Shown piece after piece: positions 4,096 to 27,262 of a DNA stretch of 64,000 nt (within the stretch, counting starts at the first letter, position 1; the number at the start of each line of letters is the position of its first letter). The DNA comes from an uncultured Microthrixaceae bacterium (GTDB lineage Bacteria > Actinomycetota > Acidimicrobiia > Acidimicrobiales > CAVOFX01). The position numbers and the translations under genes are program-made. The stretch covers positions 584-64,583 of the forward strand of contig CAVOFX010000006.1 in the NCBI GenBank assembly GCA_963695115.1, written 5' to 3'. The notes under the pieces were generated by a model. It was not told where the DNA came from and ran no database searches. It was given only the letters and a program-made list of their open reading frames with translations.

Positions 4096-4104
4096 GATGC
4101 CCCC

Positions 4105-8121: not shown

Positions 8122-8181
8122 GTTCCCGGTCGCGTTCCCGTTCGGGATCCCGGTTGGTATCCCGCTGGGTGTCCGCTCGGC
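8122..8181 (+). repeat. Array 2 of 12-bp-periodic direct repeats (core TYCCGS)
   Basis: gttcccggtcgc / gttcccgttcgg / gatcccggttgg / tatcccgctggg / tgtccgctcggc. Confidence 0.85.
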
Positions 8182-8674: not shown

Positions 8675-8804
8675 CCGGGACGGTCCCGGATCGGTCCGGC
8701 CGTCCCCGTTCGAGTTCCCGGATGCGTTCCTGGTTCGGTCCCGGATTCGGTCCCAACCCCAGGTCACGTCGTTGTTGGCAGTCCCGTTGGCGGGCCCGTC
8801 GGCG
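8675..8804 (+). repeat. Array 3 of 12-bp-periodic direct repeats, starting with a near-palindrome ccgggacggtcccgg
   Basis: gtcccggatcgg ... gttcccggatgc / gttcctggttcg / gtcccggattcg / gtcccaacccca ... gtcccgttggcg / ggcccgtcggcg. Confidence 0.8.
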
Positions 8805-8854
8805 CCCCTGCTCGGCCGAGTGCCCGGTTCGAGGATTCTGCAGATTTCTTCTGA

Positions 8855-8896
8855 CCGGGAACTCGAACGGGATAGGTACCGGGAGTCCCGTTTGCG
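8855..8896. repeat. Inverted-orientation copies of the same motif facing one forward copy
   Basis: ccgggaac, cgaacggga and accgggag are reverse complements of the array core. They are followed by a forward gtcccgtttgcg. Confidence 0.7.
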
Positions 8897-9058
8897 ATGG
8901 TCGACCCCGTGAGTCGTCCATCCGCCCGACCGGGACACTACCGAACGCTCCCTGGGTCTCCCCACCGCCGCGCAGGGCGTAGGTCGGGGAGTACCTCAGG
9001 TCACAAGTCGGGTCGTTGACGCCGGTCGAGGTCGCCGGCCTCACGCGATTTCGTCGGG

Positions 9059-9094
9059 CAGGTCGTACCTCAGGTCGTATGTCAGGTCGTACCG
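9059..9094 (+). repeat. Three 12-bp-spaced direct repeats CAGGTCGTA, ~200 bp upstream of the serine recombinase
   Basis: caggtcgtacct / caggtcgtatgt / caggtcgtaccg start at 9059, 9071 and 9083. A related acctcaggtc occurs at ~8993. Confidence 0.8.
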
Positions 9095-9294
9095 ATCGTC
9101 AGGGTCGGGTCGATGACTCCCCGATCCGACCAGGCGACGGTCGCCGTCGAGCTGCCTGCCGGGCTCCCGCCGGTGACGCCTGCAGTGGCCCGGCTGCTCG
9201 CCGTGATCGTCCGCGACGCCGCCCGCGAGGCATCGGTGGTCGAGCTGCGAGTCGGTCGACCCGGTGAGCCGCCCGAGGCCGTAGCGTCGTGACC

Positions 9295-10955
9295 ATGTCG
9301 AAGCGGTTCGCGTTCTACGGCCGAGTGTCCACCGAGGACCAGCAGGACCCGGCGTCCTCGAAGGCGTGGCAGCTCTCGCGGGCCAGCCAGCTGATCGACG
9401 GCCACGGCGAGGTGGTGGCCGAGTACTTCGACATCGGCCAGTCCCGGTCCCTGCCGTGGAAGCGGCGACCCGAGGCGTCCCGCCTCCTCGATGACCTGCG
9501 CCGCCTGGAGGACCGGTCGTTCGACGCGGTGGTGATCGGCGAGCCGGCCCGCGCGTTCTACGGCCAGCAGTTCGGGCTCACCTTCCCCACGCTCGTGCAC
9601 TACGGCGTCGAGCTGTGGGTGCCCGAGGTCGGCGGGCGGGTCGATCCCGACAGCGAGGCCCACGACCTCGTCATGTCGCTCTACGGCGGCATGTCCAAGG
9701 GCGAGCGCAACCGGATCAAGGTCCGAGTGCGCACCGCGATGGCGTCCCAGGCCGCCACCGAGGGCCGCTACCTCGGCGGCCGACCGCCCTACGGCTACCG
9801 CTCGCCGACGCCGGCGCCCACCCGAACCCGGCCAAGGCCGCCGACGGCAAGCGCCAGCATCGACTCGAGCCCGACCCCGACGCCGCCCCGGTCGTGCAGC
9901 GCATCTTCGCCGAGTACCTCGACGGACGAGGTCTCCGCTCCATCGCCGAGGCGCTCACCGCCGACGGCATCGCGTCCCCGTCCGCGCACGACCCCGCCCG
10001 CAACCGTCACCGCCAGCACTCCGGTGGTGCCTGGGCGCACTCGGCGGTGCGGGCCATCCTGCACAACCCCCGCTACACGGGCCACCAGGTGTGGGCCCGG
10101 CAGCGCAAGGACGAGGACCTGCTCGACCCCGAAGACGTCGCCCTCGGGCACCGCACCCGGATGCGCTGGAACGAGAAGGGCGAGTGGATCTGGTCGGCCG
10201 AGATCACCCACGAGCCGCTCATCGACATGGAGACCTTCGACCAGGTCCAGGCGATCATGGCCTCCCACGTGCGAGTCGCCCGCCCCAAGACCGTCATGCC
10301 CACCGAGCGGGCCTACCTGCTTCGGGGGCTGCTGTTCTGCGGGGTCTGCGGTCGACGGATGGGCGGCAACTACAACCACGGCAAGGCCCACTACCGGTGC
10401 ACCTTCCGCGAGCAGTACGCACAGAAGAAGGGCGTCGAGCACCCCCGCACCGTCTACCTGCGCGAGGACAAGGTCGTCCCCGCCCTCGACGAATGGCTCG
10501 GCCAGCTGTTCGACCCCGACAACCTCGACGCCACCTGCGAGCAGCTCGCCGCCGCGTACGAGCAACACGAGGACACGTCACGAGCCGAGCAGGCCCGCCA
10601 GACCATCGCCGACTGCGACCAGCGCCTCGCCCAGTACCGAGCAGCGCTCGACGCAGGCGCCGACGCCGCCACCGTCGCCACCTGGATGGCCGAGGTCACC
10701 GCCGAACGCAATCGCGCCGACATGGCGCTGCGCACCGCAACACCCGCCGACGCGCCCACCGCCACCGAGCTACGCGGGCTGATCGAGGGACTCGGCGACA
10801 TGGTCGCCGTGCTCGCCAACGCCGACCCCAAGCAACGAGCCGAGCTCTACGAAGCACTCGGACTGCGGCTCACCTGGCACCCCGAAGACAAGAAGGTGCT
10901 GGTAGAAGCCCAACCAGCGCGTGTGCTGGCTGGCGGTGTCGGAGGGGGGACTTGA
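9295..10955 (+). pseudogene. Large serine recombinase with one frameshift (~9800)
   Basis: The resolvase catalytic N-terminus is MSKRFAFYGRVSTEDQQ. After GGRPPYGYR the frame switches to that of ORF 9615-10955. That frame has the recombinase domain (VVQRIFAEYLDGRGLRSIAEALTADGI, YTGHQVW), a zinc-ribbon-like segment (LLFCGVCGRRM...HYRC) and a coiled-coil tail. Confidence 0.85.
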
Positions 10956-10957
10956 AC
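10936..10957. repeat. Direct repeat of the tRNA-Leu(GAG) 3' end (internal att-like site)
   Basis: The 22-nt sequence gtgtcggaggggggacttgaac is identical to 27178-27199. It overlaps the last codons and the stop of the serine recombinase ORF. Confidence 0.8.
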
Positions 10958-10977
10958 GCCGGATTCTGCCGTCCCAT

Positions 10978-11079
10978 CCCGTACCACCGAGTCGCTGTTT
11001 GTGCTGGTCAAAGGCGGTATTTCAGAAGGTCGTCTCCCGCCGGGTCACTTCCCGTACCGGCCCGTACCACCCTGTTTCC
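10978..11079 (+). repeat. Direct repeats CCCGTACCACC (x2) and CCCGTACCGG just inside the element A end
   Basis: cccgtaccacc occurs at 10978-10988 and 11061-11071, and cccgtaccgg at 11051-11060. Both full copies are followed within a few nt by ctgttt. Confidence 0.7.
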
Positions 11080-11230
11080 AGGACTTCCGCGGACAAACTG
11101 ATGACAAGCCCGAGGGTGTGTCGGGCGCAGGGCGCGGGGCCCGATTCAGTCCCACGAGACGCCTTCGCGATCTCAAGTTGAGACCGAGCCCGTCCGCCGC
11201 TCAGATCTGAGCCGTAGATCGAGGACTCAC

Positions 11231-11929
11231 CTACTCCTCGGTGACAGCAACCTCGTCCGCGATGATCGACTCCTCGGGGGCGGGGGCCTCGCCCTCGCTC
11301 GCCGGAAGGAGTTGGAGCAGCTCGCCGGATCCGGTCGCGAGGTAGAGCACCTCCACGTCGTCACCATCGCTTTCGTTTGGCGGGGAGATCCTCGTGCGAA
11401 GATGCTGCTGCCGCTTCGCCACCGACTTCTTTCGGTTGTTCCAGCGACCCTTCAGCTCCATCGCCATCAACCCGTCCGTCAAATCGACGACCAAGGCATC
11501 AGCCTGCTTGAGCTGATGGGCTTGTCCGTCCAGGAACTTCCGCAGCGCGGTGTAGGGGTTCTCAGGATCTGCGAGGGCAAGCGCTGCAGCATCGGCGATG
11601 AGAGCCTTACGCCGGATGGCGATGGCGGCCCGGGCCAAGTGCAGTTCGCGGACGAAGAGGTCGGCCTCCTTGGTCGGGCCCCCGAGCATCTCGTCCAGGC
11701 GGTGGTAGTTGACCTTGCCATCGCCTTCAACCAACCGACCGATGAGGTCACTGTGTTGTTCCAAGAACTGGTGCGACCGGTGGAACTCATCGTCAGCGCT
11801 CTTCAAAGCAAGCTCGAGGCTCGGATCGCGGCCGTCAAGGAGGAAACTGATCGCCTCGAGAGAGCTGTGCGTCCGCTGACCGTTGAGACGTGATGCGTTC
11901 CCGGTAGTACCGCTCGTCTTGCCGAGCAA
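11231..11929 (-). CDS. Hypothetical protein (helical, acidic C-terminus); may be the C-terminal part of a frameshifted fusion with 11835-12539
   Basis: This is a 232-aa ORF with a TTG start and no motif I recognise. Its frame stays open upstream (INVESKQRLLGKTSG) and overlaps the end of the preceding ORF. Confidence 0.4.
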   Translation of the reverse strand: MLGKTSGTTGNASRLNGQRTHSSLEAISFLLDGRDPSLELALKSADDEFHRSHQFLEQHSDLIGRLVEGDGKVNYHRLDEMLGGPTKEADLFVRELHLARAAIAIRRKALIADAAALALADPENPYTALRKFLDGQAHQLKQADALVVDLTDGLMAMELKGRWNNRKKSVAKRQQHLRTRISPPNESDGDDVEVLYLATGSGELLQLLPASEGEAPAPEESIIADEVAVTEE

Positions 11930-12539
11930 GCGCTGCTTCGACTCGACGTTGATGGGCGCGCTGTTCGCGCTGGGCGGCCATGTCGACCGCCATCACGGTG
12001 CCGGCGACGGCCAGCACGGGCCACCCGGCGGCGATGGCCCCGCCGACGGCGACGGGCTTCAGAACCGCGTGCGCCGTCTTGCCGCCGGTGCGAGAGAAAC
12101 CCCGGAAGCCCTCCGCTCCAACTGCCCTGACGAGCTCGGCACCCTTCGGCAGCACCGCCCGGAACAGGGTCGGACCGTTGGGATCGACCGCCTCGAGGAC
12201 CTTCACCATCGCTTGTTGGGCCGAAGCGTTGACCGGAATGCTCCGGTACTTCGCGAGCTCCGACTCCGAGACCGGGTAGTATTCGAGGGCGATCGGAACA
12301 GCGGCAGCCTCGAGTGCATCCCAGAAGGCGTCCGGGCTCGACCCAGCAGACCGCAGGACGTTCTCGGCGACGAGGATTCCCTGTGGAGGAAAGGTTGCTT
12401 GAGCTTCGATTGCAGTAGACGCGCTCAGTTCAACGTTGCTTCCCGCTTGACTCGAACCTCGCGAAGACCTCCGGACGAGCCACGCAACGAGGAGCACGGC
12501 CGCAGCGATGACAACGACGGCGACCAACGCGGCGGGCAT
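11835..12539 (-). CDS. Hypothetical membrane protein (N-terminal TM helix plus a second hydrophobic segment)
   Basis: MPAALVAVVVIAAAVLLVAWLV forms an N-terminal anchor. A second hydrophobic stretch is VAVGGAIAAGWPVLAVAGTVMAV. No recognisable catalytic motif is present. Confidence 0.45.
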   Translation of the reverse strand: MPAALVAVVVIAAAVLLVAWLVRRSSRGSSQAGSNVELSASTAIEAQATFPPQGILVAENVLRSAGSSPDAFWDALEAAAVPIALEYYPVSESELAKYRSIPVNASAQQAMVKVLEAVDPNGPTLFRAVLPKGAELVRAVGAEGFRGFSRTGGKTAHAVLKPVAVGGAIAAGWPVLAVAGTVMAVDMAAQREQRAHQRRVEAALARQDERYYRERITSQRSADAQLSRGDQFPP

Positions 12540-12684
12540 CTGTCGAGCCTACCGACACCGAACCTGCGGGGAACTCGAGGGCGCGGTCGCATCCTCGGAC
12601 GGCGGCGCCGAGCGGTTGAACGATGCCAACCTCTCTTGGCGATCGTGGGTCGATCTCACCTCGATGACGGTGCCGCAGACCGGT

Positions 12685-12952
12685 TCACCAATCGCTCCGC
12701 CGAATCCGAGGATCCATGAGGATCGCGTAGACGTACGACGGTCCCTGGAGGTCGGACACCGAGCGGGTGTTCTTCGAGAGGGAGCCTGTCGAGCGCCTTG
12801 GCGAAGTTCGTTCGCGAGAGGTGGCGGACACGGCCGACGGGCAGGAGGTAGTTGCCTGGCACCTCGTACTGGAAGAGGTCACCCCGCACGAGCCTGAAGT
12901 CCTCTCCGGCGTGGGCCTCGATGCGTGACCAGACCGTTCCAATGTCGACCAT
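12685..12952 (-). pseudogene. Small conserved-looking hypothetical gene downstream of the endonuclease, with one frameshift
   Basis: MVDIGTVWSRIEAHAGEDFRLVRGDLFQYEVPGNYLLPVGRVRHLSRTNFAKALDRLP continues in another frame as SKNTRSVSDLQGPSYVYAILMDPRI. Confidence 0.35.
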
Positions 12953-12975
12953 GCTCGCCCCCCTTGCTCGTCCGA

Positions 12976-13720
12976 CTACCCGAGAACTGCCAAGACCTGC
13001 TGACAGCGGCCCCAGAGCTGGGCCGCGAAGCCGTTGAACGACAGCCAGTCGTTCGGGTACGAGTAGGAGTCGGGCCCGCTGGTGATGGCGACGCAGGTGG
13101 CGTCGAGCATCCGTTCCTGGTCGAGGCGCTTGAACGCCATGGCGTAGCGCTCGGCGTAGCTCATCCCGTCGAAGATCGGGTCGACTCCATACCTGCGGGC
13201 ACGGTCTTCCCGCCCAGGAGGTGCTTCGGGTCGGTCGTCTTCGGGGTCTCCTCGACGATCATGAGGTACCCGATCCACGGGCGGATGACCTGAGATCAGG
13301 AGGCCACGCTCGTGTGACTTCCAGACGTCGGCGGCCTGACCGATCGCTTCCTCGACCCGGTTGTTGAAGTTGTTCGCCAGGCTGGATCCCTGCGACTTGG
13401 CTTCGACGATCGCGAGTGCGTGGCCCTTGTACTGGAGCACGACATCCCACGACTTCGACTCGCGGTAGAAGCCCGGCAGGTACATCGGTGTCGCTCGGCG
13501 ATGGATCAGGCGTGATGCCAGCGTCGAGCACGACCTTGCCGGATCAGCTGCCTCGAACGGCGCCATGTGCTTGCCGGCTCGGACTGCAGCCGCTGGTGCC
13601 GCCGACCAGACGTCCCGGCGAGCATCGGACGCCGTCTGCTGCGTTGGTCTTGACGGTCCAGAAGTCGCGGATGGCTGCCGCGAAGGCTGCCGTCGTAGTC
13701 GGGTACGGCGGGGCCGTCAC
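12976..13720 (-). pseudogene. PD-(D/E)XK type II restriction endonuclease (XhoI/PaeR7I-like by recollection), at least 3 frameshifts
   Basis: Fragments lie in three frames: AAIRDFWTVKTN / QQTASDARRDVWSAAPAAAVRAGKHMAPFEAA / LPGFYRESKSWDVVLQYKGHALAIVEAKSQ (a D...E-x-K-like core) / PWIGYLMIVEETPK / DPIFDGMSYAERYAMAFKRL. GGAG lies 5 nt upstream of the GTG at 13720. Confidence 0.55.
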
Positions 13721-13740
13721 GTTCTCCAGCTTCGCGGGTC

Positions 13741-15403
13741 TCAAGCGCCGACCTGGGTGACCCCGTAGACGCGGCCACGCCACGGCAGTGGCTCGCTCGC
13801 ACGTCACGGGCACGCGAAAGCGGAGCGCAGCGGCTCGGCGATCGCGGGCCCTGATCGATTCTGGATCCGGCACGCGGATCTTGCGGAGGTACTGAGCCTG
13901 GAAGCGGTAGGTGCCGCCGCGCATCTTGACGCAGTAGGCGCCGACGAAGAGGTTGGCGATGTCGGAGAGCAGCAGTCCGCCGAGGACCTCGAGGTCCCAG
14001 ACGTCGGAGACGACGAAGTAGAGGTTGTGGTGCGGGTAGAAGCCGCCCTCGTCGAGGACCGGGTGGGCAGCGGCCTTCATGTCCGGGAGCACGAGCTTCG
14101 GTCGGTCGGTCAGGCCGTGATCGACGCGGTCGATCGTGCGGTACCAGGTCGCCGGGCGCTGCTTGGCGACGTGCCGAGCTCGAAGCCGGTCGCCCGTTGT
14201 CGTCGAGGTACTCGGCGAGCTGCGGGTAGTCGATCGAGGTCGACGAGGCCCGACGTCCGTTCCACGGGTTGACGAGGTACCGGCCCGACCAGTCGACGGA
14301 TCCGCTGGTGGTGTCGGGCGCCTGGAGGAGCGGCAGGAGGCGATCGCTCTCGACGAGGTCGGGATCGGTCGGTGATGAAGACGTCGTCGCAGCCGGTCGC
14401 GACGCCGATGCCGACACGGGTGCCGGTCGCCGGGTCTTGGAGCGGCGGGAAGCGAGCCTCGAGGTCGGCGATGAGGGCGAGCTGGCTGTGGCGATCCCGC
14501 CGGCCACAGGTCGCGGCCGCTGAACCAGCCCTCGACTCGCGTCGCCTCGTACGACGCTGTCGGCGACGGTGTTGCGTCGTCCGCGCCGAGCCCAGGCGGA
14601 GAGTCGCGGGGCCTCCGCCTCGCCGAAGCGGCCGTTGGCGTCGACGACGACGGCCTTGCGCTGTGCGCTCGTTGCGGAGCACGACGATGGCCGGGTAGGC
14701 CGAGACGTCGTCCTCGAAGGCGTCGACATCGTGCATCGAGATGACGGTGTCGACGGCGTAGTCGGCGGTGATCAGTTCGCGGAGGTCGGCGCCGTACTGG
14801 TTGCGCATCCATCGGTCGGCACAGATGAAGGAGAGCGCGCCGCCTGGCTTGAGCAGATCGAGGCCCTCGCTCGAAGAAGCCGACGTAGATGTCGGCCCGT
14901 CCTCGCATCGTGGGGCAGATCGCGCCGGTAGGCGTCCATCGTCTGTCGGGAGATGTTCTCGAGCCGGATGTAGGGCGGGTTGCCGACGACGTAGTCCGCG
15001 CTGGCCGACTCGTGGGGGTGGAGCAGGAAGTCACCGGTGGTGATCCACTCGCCCGCCAGCGTCTCGGCGTCCTCGTCGGTCAGGCCTGGCTCATCGAGCA
15101 GCTCGGCGACGGCCTTGCGGGCTGCGCTCGGCGTTCGCGTCGAGGAGGTCGAAGGCTCGAATGGCGCGGACCCAGGATCGCGAAGGTCGCGGCCGTGGGC
15201 GCGGCTCGATGCGATCAGCCGCTCGACGATCGGGACGAGGAACGCGCCGGTACCGCACGACGGCTCGACGAGAACGTCTGACCGCCGAGGTCCTTGTCTG
15301 GCGTGTAGCCGACGAGGTCGAGGATGAGCTCGACGACCCAGCGGCGGGTGAAGACCTCGCCGTAGTCGGCTCCGGGATCGGGGGCGAGTTCAGCGAGAGC
15401 CAT
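13741..15403 (-). pseudogene. N6-adenine DNA methyltransferase (gamma-class, NPPY; TaqI/Eco57I-like architecture), at least 4 frameshifts
   Basis: The N-terminus is MALAELAPDPGADYGEVFTRRWVVELILDLVGY. A VEPSCGTGAF-type motif I and VVGNPPYIRLE motif IV are visible after frame changes. The C-terminal target-recognition part is FYPHHNLYFVVSDVWDLEVLGGLLLSDIANLFVGAYCVKMRGGTYRFQAQYLRKIRVPDP. Confidence 0.8.
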
Positions 15404-15706
15404 CGGGTCCTCGATGAGGGTGAGCTGTCGGGCGGAGCGGCACGTGATCCGCCTCTCACGAACATTCGTTCGATGATAGGGCATCTCGGCGCCGCTGCGG
15501 ACAGACCACTCATGGGGCCAGACCGTACGACGCATCCAGTCGGGTCGGAGGGACCCGCTCCGGGCGAGATGCAGGAGAGTTGGCGGAGCGGCTTGTCGGA
15601 TCCGGCTGCTGCTCGAGAACCCGGCCGGGTGTGGCCCGGCCGTCGACTGGTGGAACAGGTCGAGGGCGACCCACCAAGGCTACCGACGCCCTGTGACGGC
15701 GCGGTG

Positions 15707-18700
15707 CTACAGCGAGAGGCCCGGCGCTGAGCGCTCCGGGCCCAGATGCGGAATGCCCACGGTCTTGTTGAGGTCGGCGATGGCTCGGTTGGCTGCGTAG
15801 TAGGTGGTCCCGTAGTCGGGCTGACCGAGCGGCGGCAGCGGGCCGACGAGGGTGGTCTCGGGGAGATCCCAGAGGGCACGGTGTTGCGCGACGCGCCCTG
15901 CGGCCGCCACCCACCGCTCGCGTGCCGCCGGCTCGTCGGGGACCGGGCCGAGGTGATCGAGTCAGGAGCTGCGCTGGCTGCTCGGCGCTTTGCTCGCCTC
16001 GGATGCGGGCGTCGTCGTCGAGGGCCTGTCGGACCCGCTCGGCATCCGCGCCGTGGCGGTCGGCATGGAGCTCGACCGCCTGATCCCGGGCCAGCCCGCT
16101 CGGTCTCGATCGTTGCGGGCAGGTCCTCCAGCTCGCGCTCCAGGCCCTCGATGTGGCCGGGGAGGGAGCGAACCTCGTTCCTCGCTCGGGCGATCTCGGC
16201 CGTGTGGCCTCGGCGACGGAGGGGACGGTCGTGTTGGTCGAGCGTTCGTGTCGCATCGCTGAGACGCGCCTTGGCCTGGCCGACCAGCTCGGGGAGCTCC
16301 CTCTTCCGTTGAGTGAGCGCGGCGAGGGACCGACCGTGCTCGTCGAGGCGAAGGCGCAGCGTGTCGGCGGCCGACTGGTGCGCGGCGGCCTGCCTCACGA
16401 GGGCACGTAGCTCCGGCTCGGGAAGCGGTTCCCGCCTTGGCCGGTGTCTCCGGATCCGGCCCGCCGGCCTGCCCCGTTGGAGCGCCCTCGCCGACAGGTG
16501 TCAGGCGGTCGAGCCGAACCGCCGTGGCTGGCTGGTCGACCCACGTGCGGGCGACCGCCTCGGCTACGACGTCGGCGGCGGTGCGCTCGTCGTGGAGGAC
16601 GACGAACGCCTCGTTGGTGGAGCGGCCGCGCGGTGAGCGGGACGTAGATGCCGCTCGTGCCGGTGGGGCCGTCGAGGTAGAGGAAGGAGCGGTCGACGGT
16701 GCGGCCTTGGGTGGCGTGGCTGGTCTCGGCGTAGGCCAGCTCGACGTCGGCGGCGACGTAGTCGGCGGGCAGGGTGACCCGACCGGTCGGGCCGTCGACG
16801 GTGAGGCTCCCGTCGCGGTGGACGGCGGCGACGGTCCAGTGGTCGCGGTTCTTGACCATGCGCTGTCGGTCGGTGAGCAGCGTCCGTTCGTTGCGACGCG
16901 TCGCAACCACGTCGCCGACGTGGGCCCGGCTGGACCCGACCTGCACCGAGGGGCTGCGGGGGTCGACCTCGCCGGCGGCGAACCGCGTGGCCTGGGCGAT
17001 CTCGTTGAGGACGGCGACGGCTTCGCGAGTGGGCGCCATCATCGCCGCGCTCTCGCCGGCCGCGATGGCGTCGCGCCAGGCGTGGACGGTGGCCATGGCC
17101 ATCTGCCGGGCGGTGCCGCCGTGGAGGCGGCCGTGCTGTTCGTAGAGGCCGACGACGTCGGTGTCGCCTCGTCGCAGGCGCAGGCTGGCGTCTCGTTCCC
17201 AGGACGCGTCGAAGCGGTGGACCCGGTCGAGCTCGACGGCGCCGAGGGTGTCGACGAGGTGGCCGAACATGCCGGAGCGACCGACGGCGGAGAACTGCAT
17301 CGGGTCACCCACGAGGGCGAGACGCCAGCCGCGTCGCTCGGCCAGCTCGATCATCTCGGCGAGTCGTGGCGTCGGCACCATGGCGGCCTCGTCCACCACG
17401 ACTGTCGAGCCAGCTGGTAGGTCGTACCGGTGCTGGGGTGGACGGTCGAGGCGGTGTTCGATGAGCAGCTTGTCGAGGGTGTCGGCGTCGATGCCGGTGT
17501 CGACCGCCAGCACCTCAGCGGCGGCGGCCGATGGGGCGACGCCGAAGCACGGTCGTCCGTCGGCGTGGAGGCGAGCGACAGCGGGTCGCATGGCGGTGGT
17601 CTTGCCGGTGCCGGCGGGTCCGACGACGAGGACCAGGCGCCGGTCCCCCGCCACCGCCCCCGCGGCGTGGCGCTGGACGACGGTGAGGTCCTCGTCGGCG
17701 GGGATGTCCTGGGCGTCGGCGCCGCCTTCGTCGCTCCAGCGTTGGGTGATCTCGAGGATGCGTTCCTCCTCGTCGAGGATGGCGCTCGTGGTGAGCAGCC
17801 GGTCGAGCGCTCCCTCGGTGACGGGTCGGCCGTCACGACGCAGCGGGACGATCGTCGGGGACGGGGCGGGAGATGTCGACGACGAGGCTGTCCACGACGT
17901 GCGACGCGAGCCGTTCGGCTCGTTCGACGAGCTCGGCGGCGGTGGAGCCGAGTCGGGTCGGGAGCGCAGCGGCGATCTCGCGGGTGATCTCGGCGGGTCG
18001 CCACACCGACTGGGTGTCTCGCAGCGAGGACAAGGCGTCGACCACGGCGGTGCGGTCGATGGCGTCGTCGGGTTCGAGCGGCCGGGTCCGACCCGTCACC
18101 TGGGCGAGGTAGTCGTCGGGCGTGTAGCCGAGGGCGTCGAGCTGGTCGTGCCAGTGCTGGTGCAGCTCGGCGGCGTCGGCGCTGGTCTTGCCCGGTCGGC
18201 TGTCGATCGGCGGCCTCGCGTTCGATGGCCCAGCTCTCTCGGGGTGTCGGTCGCCGGCCGACGGTGTCGACGAAGCGCTCGACCTTCTCGTCGCGTCGCC
18301 GCTTCATCTGCTCGGTGCGCTTGGAGAACTCCGTCGAGGACCTCCTCGGGTGCGTCGGCCATCTCGGCCAGGCCGTTCTCGACGGGCTTCCATCGCACAC
18401 CGAGTCGGGCGGTCAGCTCGGCACGCAGCCCCGCGGCGTAGAGCGCCGAGACGGTGCGCTGGTCGTGCTTGAGGGTGCGGGCGTCGAGGGCGAGCCACCG
18501 GCCGTCGGGCGCCATGACCCGGTTGGCGATCACGAGGTGGGTGTGGATCTGCGGGTCGTGCGCCCGGCTGGTGTGCTGGCGGAACGCCGCGGCGATGATG
18601 CCGTCGGCGTCGACGGTCCAGATCTCGCCGTTGACCCGGTAGCGGCAGTGGGCACGGTCCTCGACCCACCCGAAGGCGGCGGCCACCGCAGCGTCGTGGG

Positions 18701-19029
18701 CGTCGAGCACCTCCTTGCGGACCTGGTCGTCGCCGATGGCGTAGAGCACGGACACCGACTTGGGCGCCGAGCAGGTCACGTCGAACCCGCGGACGGTTCG
18801 GTCGGTGTGGCGGGTGCCGAGCAGCTCGCCATCGAGCGGGTCCCGTCCGTCCATGAGCGTGAGGAAGTCGTCGTCATCGTCCGACGTCGCCGGACAGGCC
18901 GAGTGCGTCGGCGCCGCGGCCGAGCCACCGGCCGGGTGGCTCGTCGCCGTCGAGGTAGTACCGGCCGGGACCTTCGACGTAGTAGGCGCCGGCGTCGTCG
19001 CCCTTGAGCGTGGTCACCCGGGCGGTCAC
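15707..19029 (-). pseudogene. Second, divergent MobF-family relaxase-helicase, at least 6 frameshifts
   Basis: The N-terminus is VTARVTTLKGDDAGAYYVEGPGRYYLDGDEPPGRWLGRGADALGL. Other motifs: GFDVTCSAPKSVSVLY, DPQIHTHLVIANRV, Walker A VVGPAGTGKTT, VVVDEAAMV and AYAETSHATQGRTVD. The pieces are scattered over ORFs 18874-19809, 18096-18854, 17351-18400, 17833-18099, 16395-17654, 15962-16906, 15091-16398 and 15707-15910. Confidence 0.85.
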
Positions 19030-19565
19030 GGCCGACTCCCGCACGAGCGCGTGCACTCGTCTGTCGATCGTTGCGACGCTTGCGCTGGGGTCCTGGGGTT
19101 CATGGGTCGGTCCTTCAGTGGGAGGGCGTGGGTGACGGTGATGCCGGTGCCGTCGAGGTGGAGGACGTAGGTGGGTGGGTCCATGGGTCCGGTGGACGGG
19201 AGCGCTTCGAGGACGCCGCTCGGCGGAGCTGGCGCAGCCGCCGGTGCGCGCTGTCCTTGGAGAGGAACCCGAGCCGCTCGGCGAGACCGCGGGTGCTGGC
19301 CCGCAGCGACGAGCTGACCGTCGACGACCTGCGGCGTCGACGGCGAGCACGTGCGAGCACCGCCACCGCGTCGGGTCCGTGCTCGCGCAGGAAGGCGAGC
19401 GCTTCGGGGTAGCGGTGCTCGACCGACGCCTCGCCCGCCGCCAAGGTCGGCGCCGCGACCGGTGGGGCCTCGACCGTCCGCATGGCTCGGCGTGGGCGCG
19501 GCCGAACCGGACGCTTCCGCACGCTCCTCGGTCGGGACGTCGATGAGGCTGAGCTGTTCGGACAT
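19026..19565 (-). pseudogene. Winged-helix/HTH DNA-binding protein upstream of the relaxase, frameshifted
   Basis: The peptides PEALAFLREHGPDAVAVLA and STRGLAERLGFLSKDSAHRRLRQLRRA are in one frame. VLEALPSTGPMDPPTYVLHLDGTGITV is in another. The stop overlaps the relaxase GTG (GTGA). Confidence 0.45.
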
Positions 19566-19859
19566 GGCGACCTCCGGACAGGCCGGGAGATCCCATCCAC
19601 CCCAATAAGCCGTTTCGGCAGGCCGGATCTCGCGCAGAAATCCGAGAAATCAGCGGAAGCGTCTTGTCCCCGGGGTGCGACACGGGGCGGTGTCGGCAAC
19701 AGGACTGGTCAGGTCGACCGTGCTGTGCGACGATCGACTCGCTCCCCGCTGCGACGGCCACCAGGCCCGCGGCGGGCCTCTCGTGGCGAGGGTTGTCGCC
19801 GCCTCCCATCTCCGACCACGGCCGACTGGCCGGTCGGATCGACTGCCCGGGAGGCAGCC

Positions 19860-21235
19860 ATGGCCACGAGCCGCAACAACGTCCGCAAGCGCGGAACCAC
19901 CTGGACCTACTACGCCTACGTCACCGACGGCACCGGCAAGCGCCGCCAGATCTCCAAGGGCGGCTTCGCCACCCGCCGCGAAGCCGAAGCGGCCCGCGTC
20001 GAGGCCCTGTCCACCATGGCCAACGGCACCTGGGTGCGTCCCGAGCGACTGACCGTGCGCGACTTCCTCGTCGACGAGTGGCTGCCCACCCAGCGACCGC
20101 CGACGCTCGAGGAGAGCACCTACACGAGCTACGCCCGCAACATCCGCCTCCACGTCGCTGCCCCACATCGGCGGCCTCGCCCTCCAGCAGCTCACCCCGA
20201 TGGACCTCAACGCGCTCTACCGCACGCTGCTCGAGTCAGGCCGCCAACCGCCAGGCGTGCCGCCCCGCCAGCACGACCCCGCCACCCTCGCCCTCATCGA
20301 GAAGCTCCGAGCCGACGGGCTCACCTGGCAGCAGGTGGCCGACGAGGTCGGCGACCAGGTGCCCGACCTCGCCGGCATCACCCGCCACGCCGTGGCGTCG
20401 CTGCACCGTCGAGCCCACGAACCGAAGCCGGCGAAGAAGTCCGAGCCCGGGCTGAGCAACCGGACCGTGCGCTACATCCACACGATCATCCACGCGGCGC
20501 TCGCGCGACGCGCTGCGCTGGAACCGCGTCGCCCGCAACGTCGCCGACGCCGCCACTCCCCCACCGCAGGGCTCGACGAGGCGAGGCCGGCCCAACGTGT
20601 GGACCGGCCGACCAGCTCGGCCTGTTCCTCGACTACGTGGCCGACAGCCCCTACCTGCCGGCATGGCTGTACCTCGCCACCTCCGGCTCACGCCGCGGCG
20701 AGGTGCTCGGCCTCAAGTGGGACGACGTCGACCTCGACGCCGCCACGGCGATCATGTCCCGCCAGGTGACCATGGTCGACCACCGCATGGTCATCAAGGA
20801 GCTCCCCAAGACCAAGGCCGGGCACATGATCCTGCTCGACCCCGGCACCGTCGAGATGCTCGCCAACCACCGCGAGCACCAGGCCGAGGACAAGCGCCTC
20901 CTCGGCGCCGGCTACCACGACGACGGCTGGATCTTCTGCCGACCCGACGGCACGCCCGCACCACCCCGAGCGGTTCAGCCGCCAGTTCCGCCGCAAGCAG
21001 GAGACCTACAACAAGGCCAACCCCGACGAGCCGCTCCCCGAGACTCAAGCTCCACGGCCTCCGCCACACCTGGGCGACCCTCGCCCTCCAGGAAGGCATC
21101 GACATCCACGTCGTGAGCGACCGCCTCGACCACAGCAGCACCCACATCACGAGGGAGATCTACACCCACGTCACGAGGCCCATGCAGTCCGACGCCGCCG
21201 ACCGCGTGGCGGCGCGGATCCTCCGCCGGGAGTGA
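19860..21235 (+). pseudogene. Tyrosine recombinase/phage-type integrase, at least 4 frameshifts
   Basis: The N-terminal SAM-like/AP2-like part is MATSRNNVRKRGTTWTYYAYVTDGTGKRRQISKGGFATRREAEAARVE. The core is LATSGSRRGEVLGLKWDDVDL. The catalytic tail is LKLHGLRHTWATLALQEGIDIHVVSDRLDHSSTHITREIYTHV (R..HxxR..Y). The pieces alternate among three frames. Confidence 0.85.
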
Positions 21236-21236
21236 A

Positions 21237-23081
21237 TCACTCGTCGATGTCGGTCTCGGTCAGGCTCTCGTCTTCCTCTGGGACAACCAGCTTCTCGGCC
21301 TCGTCTGGATCGACTCCGAGCACGTCCGCGAGGCGGCGGGCGAGCCGGCGTTTCCTGGCGAGGTAGAAGGTCTCGAAGCCGGCCATGTCGGCGGGGATCG
21401 CCGGGAGGTCGTGACGGGCGAGGTAGTCGTCGTACCCGTCGGGATACTTCGCCTGGGCCCACGCGGCCGGCATCGCCGCCTGCTTCTCCACGTTCACCGG
21501 GCCCTCGAGGAGTTGCAGGTTCCCGAGGCGGTGGCGGCGTTCCATCACGCCCGCCACATCGGGTGCGGGGATGCCGGTTGCGGCCAGCTTCCTGCGGGTG
21601 AACTCGGCCTGCGGGAAGACGTGGTCGATGTGGAAGACGTTCCTCGTGTCCACGTTCGGGAACATCGTCGCCAACAGAGCGAAGCAGCCCCTCTGGGTGT
21701 ACGAAGTCGCGAGCAGATCGACGACCTCGCCGGGCGAGAACGAGATGGACTTGCCCCGCTTCCGCAGCGCATCCTCGAGCGCGGCGGCGGGGAACGACGA
21801 GTCTCCGCTGGCCTTCACTACGGAGCGAAGGTCCCGGAGCATCGTGTCCAGACCCGATCCCCAGATGCCTGGCTTGATCAGCGTTCGGTTGACCCACAGC
21901 CGGAGGCGTGCGCCGATCGTCGTCGTGCACGCAGCTGTCCGATAGCTCTGCCCGAGGCCGCGGTGGTGGAGGTAGCAGGCGATCGGCACCACGACCGAGT
22001 TCGCCGAAAGGTTGCCCGAGGAGAACCCGAAGTCGGACAGGAGGTCTGCCGTCAGCCGGAGGAGTGACGCGATCTCGTCCCAGTTCTTGTCGAGGAGCGC
22101 GGTGTTCTCCCGACTGAAGTTCTTCACCTTGAACGAGAAGTCCGACACGCCGACCAATGCGAGGCCGGCCTTGAGGATCAGGTCCTTGTCGAAATCGAAG
22201 CCATGCCCCGCCTGGTTCATCTCGTCGACCAGGGCGTGAACTGCCGCCCGAGCGTCCCGCTCGGTGAACTGTGCCGTCGCGATGGAGAGCAACAGGTCCG
22301 ACTGCGACAACGGCTTCCCGGCGCTATTAACTCGGATGAAGATGTCGAGGACGCGGTCGATGTCCTGCTCGTCCTCGCGGAAGAACGATACGAGCTTGGC
22401 GTTGTGCACCACCTCGTAGAGCCGTCCCAGCCGGTCAGCTGCGACGGCGTCGGCGGAACCGAGGCCCGCCTCGAGGAGGAACTTCGTCGCCATGATCGGG
22501 TTCGTTTCCTCGAAGACCTTGGCGACCGGATACCAGTAGTGCGGCTGGCCGTCGTCGTCGACTTCACCGTCATCGTCAGTGGTGAGCACAGGATCGGGCG
22601 GAGACTCGAAGAACCGGAAGTCGTGGATCATCCCGAGATCATTCGACGGCGCGTCGGCAAGCAGGTTGAGGTAAAGCCGGCGTTCGGGATACGCGTCGGG
22701 GTTGTCGCGCCAGCCGTACTTGCGGCGCTTCGCGTGCGAACCCCGGAGGCCGATGTTCAGCGACGTCAGCCTCTGCTGTCCATCGAGGATCGCAGTGACA
22801 GGCCGATCCGTGGGCAGGTCGAGCACGGGGCAGTGTGGCGCGTTCAGCTGGTGGTACTCGCGGATGAACCCGTAGAACTTGAACTCGCCCACGAGCGGCG
22901 GCTTGACCGCCCACGAGAGGAATGCCCCGATCGGGTAGCCCCGCATCAGCGAGTCGAACAGCCGGGTTACCTGCGAGTCCGGGTCCCACACGAACTCGCG
23001 CTGGATGGCCGGAAGCACGTAGTCCTGCTGCTGGATCCCCTGGAGGACCTCAGCGATTGTCTTGGCGTCTTCGAACGGCAT
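21237..23081 (-). CDS. GmrSD-type nuclease (N-terminal DUF262/ParB-like with DGQQR motif, C-terminal DUF1524 His-Me finger); predicted type IV modification-dependent restriction enzyme
   Basis: The ORF is intact. Motifs: LPAIQREFVW, AILDGQQRLTSL, then C-terminal FHIDHVFPQ ... LGNLQLLEGPVNVEK. ATG at 23081; the ORF track starts at a TTG at 23099. Confidence 0.8.
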   Translation of the reverse strand: MPFEDAKTIAEVLQGIQQQDYVLPAIQREFVWDPDSQVTRLFDSLMRGYPIGAFLSWAVKPPLVGEFKFYGFIREYHQLNAPHCPVLDLPTDRPVTAILDGQQRLTSLNIGLRGSHAKRRKYGWRDNPDAYPERRLYLNLLADAPSNDLGMIHDFRFFESPPDPVLTTDDDGEVDDDGQPHYWYPVAKVFEETNPIMATKFLLEAGLGSADAVAADRLGRLYEVVHNAKLVSFFREDEQDIDRVLDIFIRVNSAGKPLSQSDLLLSIATAQFTERDARAAVHALVDEMNQAGHGFDFDKDLILKAGLALVGVSDFSFKVKNFSRENTALLDKNWDEIASLLRLTADLLSDFGFSSGNLSANSVVVPIACYLHHRGLGQSYRTAACTTTIGARLRLWVNRTLIKPGIWGSGLDTMLRDLRSVVKASGDSSFPAAALEDALRKRGKSISFSPGEVVDLLATSYTQRGCFALLATMFPNVDTRNVFHIDHVFPQAEFTRRKLAATGIPAPDVAGVMERRHRLGNLQLLEGPVNVEKQAAMPAAWAQAKYPDGYDDYLARHDLPAIPADMAGFETFYLARKRRLARRLADVLGVDPDEAEKLVVPEEDESLTETDIDE

Positions 23082-23164
23082 CCGCAGAGCCTTCCACAAC
23101 GCCAGTCGCGTTCACCGAGCGCCGACCGACGGCAACGATCGAAGGTTGAGGCGCGGCGATACCC

Positions 23165-26100
23165 CTACCAGGCCTCGGGATTCGGCATGCCGAGCCGGAT
23201 GGCCTGTTCGATGATGATTCGGATGCGCTCGGGATCGCTGCCCCGCGAAGCCTCGGCATCAGCTCCGGCAACTGGTGCCCGCCCCACCACGGTGGCTCGG
23301 TGCCGCGCATGAGGTGTCCGATCATCACGGCGCAAGTATCGGGGAAGGGGTCCACGTGGCGTTCGAGGTGCCGCAGTACGTCGCTGTGCTCCCGGAAGCG
23401 GCCCGGCCGCTGTGTCACGAGTTGCACTCCAGACTCGAACGACTCGGTGAGGAATGGAATCCACCCGGCCATCACCGTGGACTCGTCATCCGCGAGCTGG
23501 ACCGGGACGCTCGACAGCCTGTCGGTCCAGTACCTCTGCATCCACCGGGTCCATTGGTGCTCGACCGCTTCGTCCGGCAGATCGCCCAAGATCTCGCCGA
23601 CCTTCTCCGCAAAGGTGACGCGGTCCTCATCACGAAGGTCAGCGATCACGCCTGGCAGCCAGCCGAGCGGGTCACGATCGCTGGTGAGCGCTATGCCGGC
23701 CAGGTGGCCGAGGATCGACCCGCGAGGCTCGTCACCGAACTCGGCTAGGCGGTGGGCGGCTTCGAGATAGCGCTCCATGAGCCCGGCGTCGAGCATCCGA
23801 TCGTTCCAGCGACCCCAGCTGGTGAAGCCGCTCCAAGCTCGTCGAGCCCGCGCCGGATCGGACCAGTCGAAGATCGGAAGGACATGATCCACCGTCCAGT
23901 CAGGGTCCGCCGCGAAGAGGAAGTGCATCCGACTCGCGCAGATCACCTCGACCATCTGGGTCCGAGCCTCATCCGCAGGACCGTCGAGCATCGTCTCGAA
24001 CGTGTCTCGGTGCTCCTGAACCAGACCAGACCATGCGTCCTCCTCGGCGCGCCAGTCGCGTTGGACCACGTGGAGCCAGAACTCGGCCAAGTGTCCGCCC
24101 GGATGGTTGATCGCACGGCTGAGCCAATCGATCTCGCCGAACACCACCTCCTCATCAGGGATCAGCGGCCAGAGGTCACGGGCGAGTTGCCGCGCACCAG
24201 GTACCGCCGTCCAGTCCGTGGGGTGGCCCTCGGTGGTCGCTCCATCGGAGAGCATGGAGGCGAGATCTCGAGCGAGAGCCGTGAGGTCGAGTGCCCCGAC
24301 CGCGCTGATCACCGCAGCTGCCGCGACTGGTTCGAGTTCGGCGCGGCTCCAACCGCGTATGACGGCCTCAGTGACTTCCTGCTCGTGCGGCGCACTGTCG
24401 AGGAGTCGATGGCCATCATCGGGTCCGGCTTGGACGGCCCCACTGACCAGAGCCAACGAGTCGTCCCATGTCGGCCCGCCGTCCCAATGCCGGACGCCCT
24501 TGGTCTCGCGCAGCGTCTCAAGCAGCGCTGATGGATCGGCCTGGAGCCGTTCGTGGAAGCTTTCGACCGACATCGGTGGTCGTGAGGGAACGAAGCCGAC
24601 CTCCATCGAATGGGTGAGGTCGGGGTCTGTGCGTGCCGTCCAGTTCGGGTCGACGGCGTGAGCGTCAGTGAGCGCTTCGGTGATGCGGGGGTGATGTGGA
24701 CGGGCCCGGTCCATCCAGACGAGCGCGTTGAACCGTTCGTACGGCAGGTGCTCTGACTCCTCCTCGTCTGGCTCGAACACCTGAGCGATGAGCGCTTCGA
24801 TGGCCTCGTTCGAGGCCGCTGGGAGGGCGTCCTCGATGAGGCGGAACAGTTCGTGGCGCACTTGGTGGTCGAAGAGCCAACCGGATTGCACGACCCAGTC
24901 GAGCTTGGCCGTGGAGTCGACGTCACTCCGACAGGTCCAGCCGTGGATCGCGAGGCGTCGGAGGAGCGGCGAGTCCGCTGCCGCCCAGGACTGCATGTAG
25001 CCCTCGGCGATCGGGTGCGACGCATCAAGCAGAGCCTCGAGTGAGTCGCGGGCAGCGTCGATCAGGACGTCGATCGGCTCGGTGTACCGGTCCTGGGGGT
25101 GAGGCTCGATGGCGTGCCGACCAAACGAGACCGCGTCCCAACCGCGGTTGCCTGGGTCCGCCGAGATCTGAAGATCACGAACCCGCCGTAGGTGCCGATC
25201 GGCGATTGCAGCGCTCGCCTCCGCGACTTCGGTCAGGTTCGGCTGGAGGATCTTGCTCCACGCCTCCTTGAGCCAGTGGTTGCTGCCCCGGAGTTGAAGA
25301 CCCAGCCGCGGCGGGCCTTGACCGAAGGACGGAGTCAACGCGGGCGAGGGCTCGGTCAGGTGATCGAACAGCAGGAGCGTCTGCTCGCGATCCGCCGGCC
25401 AGGTCGATGCCGCAAGCGCATAGTCGAGCCACTGGTTGCCTCGGGCGGGCGCATCCCGAAGCAGCAGCACGAGCCAGACACCGAGCCAGCCTGGTCGGGG
25501 CGCCCCGCGTCGATGAAGATCAAGCCCGATCTCGTCGCAGATCTCCGGTCCGAGGTAGCCGCCACTTCCGCCGACGAGGCCGAGGGCTTGGTCCGTGTGC
25601 TGCTCGTCCATGACGAAGTACTCGACGAACCACCGAGCAAGCGCTCGGCCCGTGTCAGACGGCTGGGATCCTCGGGTAAGGAGATCCTTGAACACCGGTT
25701 GGGTAGACGCCCAGTCGAGCCATTCGGAGGATCGCGCGAACTCAGTGAAGAGGGAGACTCGGTGGGGATCGGCAACCAGTTCCTCCAGGTAGGACTCATC
25801 CTCCGGGATACGGGACGGCGGCGAGGCGACGAGGTCGGCCACACGCTGCCGGTGATCCAACAGTCCCATGCCCGCGATCTCGGCCCACCGCCCAAGGGAG
25901 TGCCCGAGTGCTGCGTGGGAATCGCCGACGACCTCGTATCCGATCGTCCGTAGGCCAAGGTCCTTCCAGTCGCGCTCCCCAGGGGTGTCTGTCAGCACGA
26001 AGCGCTGGCCGTCCGGACCAAGGGCCCGCGCCAGGTAGCGCATGACGACGTCGCCGTGGCTGTAGCCGATGAACAGGACGGCGAACTCGGCGAACATCCG

Positions 26101-26653
26101 CTCCAAGAAGCGCGCGGCCCAGGCGTCGCGGAGGTAGGCCTTACCGAAGTCGCCGTCGGTCACCACCAATCGCGGGGGAGGCAGGCGCAATGTGCCGTGC
26201 AGGTATACGACCCCGGTGAAGTTGTCGCCCATGGGCAAGGCGGGTGCTGCGCACTCCTCCACCTCGACCCCTCGAGCCTCGAGCGCCGAGGTCAGGTGGC
26301 GGTCGAAGTTCGTTGTCACAACTCTGAGCGTCGGCGAGGTCAGAGCGAGGTCAACGATCGCTTCGTGGAGGCGGTTGTGCTTCGACTGCGGGATGCTGAG
26401 ATGCTCCGCTACGCGAAGGTGAACATCGACGCCCCGATCCTCGATGCGCCCGAGGACGACGTCGGGATGATCGAGGGCTTGGTCGCTCACCTCGTAGTGG
26501 ACTTCGTCCGACGATCGACCTCGTAAGCGCCTTGAAGTCGGGAAGGTCAGCTGGAGCATCGCGAGACGCCCCCGCCCCGACGAAGAGCACGAGTCGGCCC
26601 GCTCGGTGAGCATCGACAAGTTCTGCCGGAATCTCTACGCCGCCGACCCACAC
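23165..26653 (-). CDS. SIR2-domain (SIR2_2-like, predicted NADase) protein with ~850-aa uncharacterised C-terminal region; two single-base frameshifts (~26525 and ~23260)
   Basis: The N-terminus (GTG at 26653) is RLVLFVGAGASRDAPADLPDF. It is followed, after a 1-nt shift, by RVVTTNFDRHL, GVVYLHGTL and LFIGYSHGD. The C-terminal tail EASRGSDPERIRIIIEQAIRLGMPNPEAW is in the frame of ORF 23165-23464. Confidence 0.75.
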
Positions 26654-26688
26654 GATGCCGATGGTAGGCCGGCACCGGCCAAGTCGGT

Positions 26689-26967
26689 TCAGCGGAAGAT
26701 GTCGCGGGCTGCTCGCGCTAACGATTCCCTCACGTGGTCCCGTGCCGCACGATCAGCGGCGTCGAAGCTCGTCGTGGGTGCGCCCTCCCATGCGATTGCT
26801 TCATCGACCGACACGATCGGCGTCCATTGCTCGGGGGTGAGTGAATCGCAGCGTGCGCCGGCCTTGACCGTGCTACCCAGCACTCGGTCCGTGGTCACGA
26901 TGCCGGTGATCAGCACGCCGGGCTCGACGCGCTGGTCGTTGATGAAGCGATCCACGTGGAAACTCAC
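26689..26967 (-). CDS. Small hypothetical ORF immediately upstream of the SIR2 gene
   Basis: This is the in-frame tail of ORF 26689-27219, whose N-terminal part overlaps the tRNA and cannot be real. A candidate GTG at 26967 gives VSFHVDRFINDQRVEPGVLITGIV.... I recognise no motif. Confidence 0.3.
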   Translation of the reverse strand: MSFHVDRFINDQRVEPGVLITGIVTTDRVLGSTVKAGARCDSLTPEQWTPIVSVDEAIAWEGAPTTSFDAADRAARDHVRESLARAARDIFR

Positions 26968-27148
26968 ACCGTGATGGTGACATGCCGAGGTAGCCCGCCA
27001 GTGGAGCCCCGTGACGGTTCGTCGGCGCGAGGCCAACCGCCTGGCCGGTGCCGCCACGCCCCGTCGCGAGCCCCAAGCGCACGCCGGTGATGACAAACCA
27101 ATGACAAGCGCCCCATTCGACCCGCTCGACCGCCGGCCAAAATGTACG

Positions 27149-27174
27149 CTGACCAGCACTTTCGTGCTGGTCAG
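27149..27174 (-). terminator. Perfect 11-bp stem / 4-nt loop hairpin 5 nt downstream of tRNA-Leu(GAG)
   Basis: ctgaccagcac tttc gtgctggtcag. On the minus strand it is followed by cgtacatttt. Confidence 0.55.
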
Positions 27175-27177
27175 ATC

Positions 27178-27199
27178 GTGTCGGAGGGGGGACTTGAAC
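27178..27199. repeat. att-like core within the 3' end of tRNA-Leu(GAG)
   Basis: gtgtcggaggggggacttgaac is the reverse complement of part of the T-loop, the T-stem 3' strand, the acceptor 3' strand and the discriminator, plus 1 nt. Confidence 0.8.
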
Positions 27200-27262
27200 C
27201 CCCACGCCCTTGCGGGCACTAGCCCCTCAAGCTAGCGCGTCTGCCAATTCCGCCACTCCGAC
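27179..27262 (-). tRNA. tRNA-Leu(GAG)
   Basis: Manual fold: acceptor GTCGGAG/CTCCGAC, anticodon stem CTAGC/GCTAG with loop TTGAGGG (anticodon GAG), long variable arm, T-arm GGGGG-TTCAAGT-CCCCC, discriminator A. CCA is not encoded. Confidence 0.9.

Follow-up and report, generated by a model that had tools for sequence, protein, structure and literature searches.

The window analyzed here is a stretch of 64,000 nucleotides (nt) from contig CAVOFX010000006.1 (assembly GCA_963695115.1) of an uncultured Microthrixaceae bacterium, with a high GC content of about 0.69. Three minus-strand genes lie downstream of a tRNA-Leu(GAG) gene: a small open reading frame (ORF), a gene for a large sirtuin, and a gene for a nuclease (Table 1). 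The sirtuin resembles DSR1, defence-associated sirtuin 1, which is said to go back to Gao et al. 2020 and Garb et al. 2022. The nuclease resembles BrxU, reportedly the work of Picton et al. 2021 (PDB 7P9K, 7P9M). The small ORF terminates 35 nt before the sirtuin start, and the sirtuin gene is separated from the conserved ATG of the nuclease gene by 83 nt, or by 65 nt if an upstream TTG is used. A model-generated note (the original prediction) had described the three genes as head to tail with gaps of about 35 and 66 nt; the layout and the first gap were confirmed, and the second gap was corrected. No terminator-like sites were found between the cassette genes. A sigma-70 promoter scan gave no match in the cassette, but such a scan is uninformative for a high-GC organism. 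The prediction had considered both a new coupled sirtuin-nuclease system and two adjacent single-gene systems.

The nuclease gene was an open frame. Its homologues mostly begin with MPFEDAK at a conserved ATG, which was taken as the start, with the TTG as the alternative. The product matched Pfam GmrSD_N (2.6e-29) and, almost end to end, the PADLOC model HEC-05 (PDLC04151; 3.9e-195, residues 1 to 590 against 20 to 595 of 600) and the BrxU structure 7P9K (E = 1.3e-153, 515.9 bits, residues 6 to 587 against 5 to 577 of 587). The RLFDS, DGQQR, and DHVFP motifs were in invariant columns of the nuclease alignment A2. The HNH motif HIDHVFP was aligned to DHIYP of 7P9K, and D486, H487, N521, and N530 were invariant. 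The motifs RLFDS, DGQQR, and DHIYP are listed by Payne et al. (bioRxiv 10.1101/2024.01.29.577857), who also give the HEC-05 representative as 99.2% identical to BrxU. BrxU is reported to cleave modified phage DNA (e.g., hydroxymethylated or glucosylated). These matches indicate that the gene encodes a predicted BrxU-type enzyme, that is, a type IV restriction enzyme of the GmrSD family.

The reading frame of the nuclease contained a compensated frameshift. A -1 change was located at about 21932 and a +1 change at about 21907, and the frame was regained after 25 nt. Around nine residues (384 to 392) were scrambled, with AACTTTIGAR in place of the consensus AGVHDxDRRx, and a D-R pair that 90% or more of the homologues share was lost. 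In each of the four homologues aligned as DNA, this stretch, which in the window also bears substitutions, is read in the other frame. Under random placement, an opposite-sign pair of indels within 25 nt would have a chance of about 1.4%, making it plausible that the second indel was a selected suppressor that restored the frame. Such a second-site suppressor would imply that the host kept the nuclease under selection after the first indel. The ratio of nonsynonymous to synonymous substitution rates (dN/dS) was 0.064 in comparison with the related locus L002, indicating strong purifying selection. The BrxU-like gene in this genome may still be functional, or it may be impaired by the nine scrambled residues.

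The BrxU-like gene of the relatives L002 to L005 (positions 3903 to 5743 in L002) has a 1-nt deletion of its own near codon 567, giving a product of 598 amino acids (aa) with a changed C-terminal tail. This form was found on many contigs (P0249 on 23 and P0250 on 8), so it is apparently a genuine variant in circulation and not an error.

The sirtuin gene encodes a protein of 1162 aa after repair of its frame, and its closest intact relatives, including P0001 (1162 aa, 91% identical), are equally long. The repaired protein matched Pfam SIR2_2 (1.2e-15) and DUF4020 (3.1e-8, at residues 998 to 1085). PADLOC Dsr1 models matched it in three colinear stretches (3.1e-60, 4.3e-58, and 8.6e-14). The motifs GAGAS, TTNFD, and YLHG were present, and N115 and H152 were invariant in an alignment of 26 homologues. 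The family search gave 578 matches, mostly SIR2_2 plus DUF4020 proteins of about 1160 aa, and those with a named source were mostly from actinobacteria. In the AlphaFold2 (AF2) model of P0001 (mean predicted local distance difference test [pLDDT] score, 84.6), a SIR2 head of the Rossmann type precedes a solenoid that is entirely alpha-helical from around residue 250 through the C terminus. Among PDB entries, DSR2 chains were the closest to this model in fold in a Foldseek search (E of about 1e-8). The sequence search for solved structures found none covering the sirtuin beyond the SIR2 domain. DUF4020 is presumably tied to the tested DSR1 proteins; a literature search on DUF4020 found no paper mentioning it. 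The profile matches place the sirtuin in what is predicted to be a divergent, actinobacterial-type DSR1 subfamily, a family-level relative of the tested proteins rather than an equivalog. DSR1 protects, and on infection it depletes NAD+; the depletion is transient, and the culture does not collapse (Garb et al., bioRxiv 10.1101/2021.12.14.472415). The sensor domain of Dsr1, which is common to Avs7, is reported to recognise phage major capsid proteins (2026 preprint, PMC12803255).

DNA alignment with four intact homologues (L006, L087, L002, and L001) located exactly two frame-breaking changes in the sirtuin gene, an extra T near 26511 (+1) and a lost base near 23243 (-1), in agreement with the two 1-nt indels that had been predicted. 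The reading frame in the window is interrupted by these changes. As encoded, the first 48 codons, with GAGAS, are out of frame with the remaining approximately 1,090, and the last 25 codons are replaced. The displaced GAGxS segment and the replaced tail indicate that the gene is most probably inactive. The window branch of DSR1 carried 9 nonsynonymous and 15 synonymous codon changes, a ratio no higher than on the branches of the intact relatives, indicating that the inactivation was recent if the frameshifts are real. The window DSR1 is probably a recent pseudogene. Programmed frameshifting was ruled out, because each of the four close homologues has a single reading frame.

The small ORF had no Pfam, PADLOC, or NCBIfam match. 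Its GTG start is the best supported because the homologue in L092 has an ATG at the same codon. The homologues formed five clusters with 74 to 99% identity. Compared with the L092 copy, whose surroundings are unrelated, dS was 0.71 and dN was 0.115, giving a dN/dS of 0.16. This purifying selection indicates that the small ORF is a real gene despite the lack of a family match, and we predict that it is a separate orphan gene. Its AF2 model had a beta-sheet and a C-terminal helix (pLDDT of 79.5 in the best two of five models) and gave no significant PDB fold match. A counterpart was present in L006 and, alone, in L092, and there was none in L002 to L005, L087, or L001.

The three genes lie within an element integrated at the tRNA-Leu gene, as had been predicted. 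Exact copies of the tRNA 3' end flank the block, and a decayed integrase adjoins it. The 22-nt direct repeat matching the att core marks the distal boundary of this element (element A), and a third exact copy marks that of a second one (element B). With the 3' end of tRNA-Leu present in three exact copies, two integrative elements lie in tandem at this tRNA gene. Relative to the att core, the terminator-like hairpin is on the side of the element, indicating that the integrated element supplies the terminator of tRNA-Leu. The integrase pseudogene is convergent with the nuclease gene, and their two stop codons are 1 nt apart. A colinear, intact element was found in L002, from activated sludge, with 84% nucleotide identity over 10.9 kb. 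Its order is tRNA-Leu(AAG), DSR1, the GmrSD_N gene, a 455-aa integrase, a 151-aa ORF, a 1103-aa TrwC relaxase, and a type IIG restriction-modification (RM) gene. DSR1 and the nuclease of L002 to L005 are 86% and 94% identical, respectively, to those of the window. In L087 the nuclease is also 94% identical, and both genes are intact.

Table 1. Genes, repeats, and element boundaries at the tRNA-Leu locus (positions in the window)
Feature	Position	Strand	Description
tRNA-Leu(GAG)	27178-27262	minus	ARAGORN; 3' end 27178-27199 is the att core
Hairpin with T-run	27149-27174	minus	11-bp stem; directly after the tRNA, element side of the att core; terminator-like
Small ORF	26689-26967	minus	GTG start 26967, 92 aa; 88-aa version from 26955
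DSR1-type sirtuin gene (SIR2_2 + DUF4020)	23165-26653	minus	GTG start 26653, TAG stop 23165; 1162 codons
BrxU/HEC-05-type GmrSD-family nuclease gene	21237-23081	minus	ATG 23081, stop 21237-21239; 614 aa, open frame
Tyrosine integrase pseudogene	19860-21235	plus	tblastn of intact 455-aa L002 integrase: 5 pieces in different frames
TrwC/MobF-type relaxase pseudogene	15700-19032	minus	tblastn of 1103-aa L002 relaxase: at least 6 pieces
XhoI-type RM remnant	12976-15034	minus	XhoI endonuclease ORF 12976-13716, Pfam XhoI 8e-26
Frameshifted methyltransferase with TaqI_C domain	13544-15034	minus	Pfam TaqI_C 1.6e-4, below cut-off
Exact 22-nt direct repeat of tRNA 3' end	10936-10957		blastn and repeat family D8, 100%, E = 6e-7; distal boundary of element A
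Third exact copy of tRNA 3' end, 21 nt	3274-3294		blastn and repeat family; distal boundary of element B
Element A	~10958-27177		~16 kb; holds defence cassette, integrase, relaxase, and XhoI-type RM remnants
Element B (inner, tandem)	~3295-10935		

The integrase and relaxase genes of element A were both multiply frameshifted in the window and intact in L002. Relative to L002, the integrase had 5 frameshifting indels, all of them 1-nt insertions (dN/dS, 0.33), and the relaxase had 10 indels that were not multiples of 3 (dN/dS, 0.32). DSR1 and the nuclease had two frameshifting indels each, with dN/dS values of 0.18 and 0.064, respectively. Per kb, there were 0.75 such indels in the defence genes versus 3.2 in the mobility genes (binomial p = 0.0045). 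The preservation contrast noticed in the original prediction therefore stood as far as the shredded mobility genes were concerned, but the nuclease had been described as fully intact and carries the compensated frameshift. We infer that the mobility genes decayed first and the defence cargo later. The island would be a clean small example of decay in which mobility genes were lost before defence cargo, with one cargo gene apparently rescued by its compensating indel. Per-ORF statistics of GC content at third codon positions (GC3) were used in place of a sliding GC3 frame plot, which was too noisy for locating frameshifts. Long GC3-rich ORFs covered 80% of the sequence to the right of the tRNA versus 11% to the left. 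Assembly-wide indel error was rejected as the main cause of the frameshifts, because the core genes on the right-hand side of the tRNA have no interruptions.

A more local form of error is the alternative that survives best. The DSR1 indels, and perhaps those of the nuclease, may be sequencing or assembly errors in a metagenome-assembled genome (MAG), with both genes intact and active in the organism. The damage to DSR1 would fit this: the gene has just two 1-nt indels in 3.5 kb, no stop codon in its true frame, and no nonsynonymous excess on its branch. However, the indels lie outside long homopolymers, the scrambled stretch of the nuclease also has substitutions, and the core genes beside the tRNA are uninterrupted, with the high ORF coverage given above. 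In addition, the 15 frameshifting indels of the integrase and relaxase, at dN/dS values of 0.32 to 0.33, indicate that the decay of the element is real. We consider the error explanation unlikely, though it deserves some weight.

The genes next to homologues of DSR1 and of the nuclease were compared across loci. The original prediction had proposed such a comparison of close homologues, and the two genes co-localised only in one closely related lineage, consisting of the window, L002 to L005, and L087. With more than 86% identity among them, the paired relatives represent a single evolutionary event. Other DSR1 loci had no nuclease neighbour. L006 (DSR1 91% identical, with the small ORF) diverges directly after the DSR1 stop codon and is without the nuclease. 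In L001, a Rhabdothermincola MAG, DSR1 (75%) adjoins a tRNA-Arg, IS256, and a RES/Xre toxin-antitoxin pair, and there is no GmrSD neighbour. The same was found for L093 (73%), for L094 to L096 (67%), where DSR1 lies beside another SIR2-like gene and IS21, and for L097 and L098 (63%), where it lies beside a type I RM system and an integrase. In L094, a second, shorter ORF of 561 aa with a faint SIR2_2 match (672 to 2357) is located just upstream of DSR1 (2766 to 6251).

A scan of the genome collection with the single repaired DSR1 protein gave one locus, L001. A metagenome scan with the alignment A1 gave 80 DSR1 loci with 29 to 55% identity, of which 51 had at least 2 kb of downstream sequence. 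A homologue of HEC-05 was detected by tblastn with the nuclease in 1 of the 80 (L022, 46% identity), at a distance of 6.4 kb. The neighbours of DSR1 thus differed among L001, L006, L093 to L098, and the 80 metagenome loci, indicating that DSR1 stands alone. Conversely, homologues of the nuclease were found in islands without DSR1. The homologue in L088 (80%) lies beside an N6_Mtase/Eco57I and XhoI RM pair. Those in L089 and L090 (77%) lie in an Hma-type island with DUF1156, DUF499/HEPN_Swt1, and REase-ARP genes, and that in L091 (71%) lies between DEAD/MZB helicase and BrxC/PglX-like genes in a BREX/DISARM-type island. The arrangement in L088 and the XhoI-type RM remnant in element A suggest that BrxU-like genes and XhoI-type RM systems may travel together more than BrxU and DSR1 do.

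On this evidence, we assign a probability of roughly 0.85 to the following reading. The defence block is cargo of an integrative mobilizable element that was inserted in the 3' end of tRNA-Leu and is decaying in place. Its DSR1 and BrxU-type genes are two already described single-gene systems side by side, independent modules that are shuffled in a variable slot that separates the att site from the integrase, with no new defence mechanism. Profile matches and homologue neighbourhoods both favoured the two adjacent single-gene systems that the original prediction had offered as its alternative. The outcome that the prediction had itself named as counting against a coupled system was thereby obtained: each gene matches a described stand-alone system, and outside the one lineage the two families do not occur as neighbours. 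Its assignment of the sirtuin to the DSR-like proteins with an SIR2_2 domain carrying GAGxS, TTNFD, and YLHG held, with GAGxS out of frame as encoded, and so did that of the nuclease to the GmrSD/BrxU-type enzymes with DUF262 and a His-Me motif. The profile searches that it had proposed supported SIR2_2, GmrSD_N, Dsr1, and HEC-05.

Several findings weigh against this reading. The GmrSD_C match of the nuclease reached 19.1 bits, below the gathering cut-off of 23, so the support for DUF1524 comes from the motif and the full-length alignment and not from Pfam. P0001 scored 262.7 bits against the NCBIfam equivalog model of Dsr1 (NF041818), for which the cut-off is 1400, and its best stretch was the SIR2 domain. 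The trigger and phenotype of the sirtuin are therefore extrapolated. Finally, the pair has the same spacing and orientation in the window, L002 to L005, and L087, which amounts to at least three sampled relatives, and DSR1 and the nuclease may be coregulated within this element.

If the activities and triggers of the two families hold for these proteins, the systems would act as follows. In an intact sirtuin, the helical sensor containing DUF4020 would bind a phage structural protein, which for Dsr1 is reportedly a capsid protein, and this binding would switch on the SIR2 NADase and lower NAD+. In the nuclease, the DUF262 domain (RLFDS and DGQQR) would hydrolyse nucleotide and the DUF1524 HNH domain (DHVFP) would cut phage DNA with modified bases. 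The adjacency of the two genes would be due to the shared variable slot of the element family and not to a joint function. In this genome, the mobility genes would have died first and DSR1 later, by two 1-nt indels, and the frame of the nuclease would have been kept by its second indel.

Within this element family, the sirtuin and nuclease could also form a cotranscribed, layered pair, in which the nuclease would target phages whose DNA is modified and the capsid-sensing sirtuin would be an NAD+-depleting backstop. If so, the second indel of the nuclease would record selection by the host to keep the cargo after the loss of mobility. We consider such a pair very unlikely. It is possible that the 92-aa orphan gene modulates DSR1. 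The specific proposal that ties it to DSR1, as a regulator, antitoxin-like partner, or anti-defence gene, draws on its location 35 nt upstream of DSR1 in both the window and L006 and on its purifying selection. It is highly improbable, given that the gene is absent from L002 to L005, L087, and L001, where DSR1 is intact, occurs in L092 with neither DSR1 nor the nuclease, and has no family or fold match. The least credible proposal is that the sirtuin and nuclease, with or without the small ORF as a third gene, are one new coupled system, for example with the nuclease sensing modified DNA and the sirtuin as the effector: the genes are codirectional with gaps of 35 and 83 nt and no terminator-like site found between them, and the pair is conserved in L002 to L005 and L087, but each protein is a full-length member of a family whose genes act singly, the pairing is limited to one lineage with more than 86% identity, DSR1 occurs without the nuclease in L006, L001, and L093 to L098, only 1 of the 80 more distant DSR1 loci has a nuclease homologue and that one is nonadjacent, BrxU homologues lie in other islands where DSR1 is absent, the small ORF is alone in L092 and has no counterpart in L002 to L005 and L087, and a frameshifted DSR1 next to a nuclease with a dN/dS of 0.064 would be unexpected for obligate partners.

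Element B, the inner element of the tandem, terminates with a large serine recombinase gene at 9495 to 10955 (Pfam Recombinase and Zn_ribbon_recom). Its stop codon overlaps the repeat at 10936 to 10957, and its N-terminal part is apparently frameshifted. Element B also contains fragments of a second relaxase at 4997 to 6199 and 7123 to 7779, with pieces 34 to 52% identical to the L002 relaxase, indicating that both tandem elements were once mobilizable and that both are now decayed. An inverted duplication was found at 67 to 1390 and 3493 to 4825, with arms of about 1.3 kb that are 86 to 100% complementary in blocks. The approximately 2.1 kb between the arms includes an ORF of the acetoacetate decarboxylase family (2297 to 3517; Pfam ADC, 2.9e-38), and a secreted metalloprotease-like ORF (3385 to 4104) was located within the arms. 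The copy of the tRNA end at 3274 to 3294 lies within the ADC-family ORF, roughly 200 nt inward from the right arm's inner edge. Low-complexity direct repeats with spacings of about 12 nt (family D1, 12 overlapping copies) were detected at 1425 to 1871. The GC skew was strongly negative, -0.38 at 1001 to 2000, covering this repeat region.

The analysis places divergent genes of the DSR1 and BrxU families on a mobilizable element that targets tRNA-Leu in high-GC bacteria of the activated-sludge type. Its importance beyond annotation is small. The intact relatives L087 and L002 are convenient sources of an actinobacterial-type DSR1.

Compared with known systems, the sirtuin is most similar to DSR1. 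Both are single large proteins of approximately 1160 to 1260 aa, in which an N-terminal SIR2_2 domain keeping the Asn of TTNFD and the His of YLHG is followed by a long alpha-helical sensor, and the PADLOC Dsr1 matches are colinear. The differences are that the relative of the window protein scores far below the equivalog cut-off (262.7 versus 1400 bits) and that the window gene is twice frameshifted. DSR2 of Bacillus subtilis (PDB 8WY8, 8K98, and others) is the best whole-chain fold match, sharing the SIR2 head and alpha-solenoid body. However, the sequence identity to DSR2 is 10 to 12%, the TM-score is about 0.2, and by sequence the SIR2 domain alone matches. In addition, the window family has DUF4020 as its sensor, whereas the C-terminal domain of DSR2 binds the tail tube protein.

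The nuclease aligns end to end with BrxU/HEC-05 and shares the RLFDS, DGQQR, and D-H-x-x-P HNH motifs and the full-length match to the HEC-05 model. It differs in that the window gene is located outside BREX and Hma islands, on a tRNA-integrated mobilizable element beside DSR1, and in that the window protein has the 9-residue scrambled segment. The architecture of DUF262 and DUF1524 and the DGQQR motif are also found in GmrSD (Eco94/CT596) and SspE. The PADLOC match to SspE was much weaker (3.6e-8) and covered the N-terminal region of the window nuclease alone. According to Payne et al. (bioRxiv 10.1101/2024.01.29.577857), GmrSD and SspE are without the RLFDS motif, unlike BrxU, and the window nuclease has this motif.

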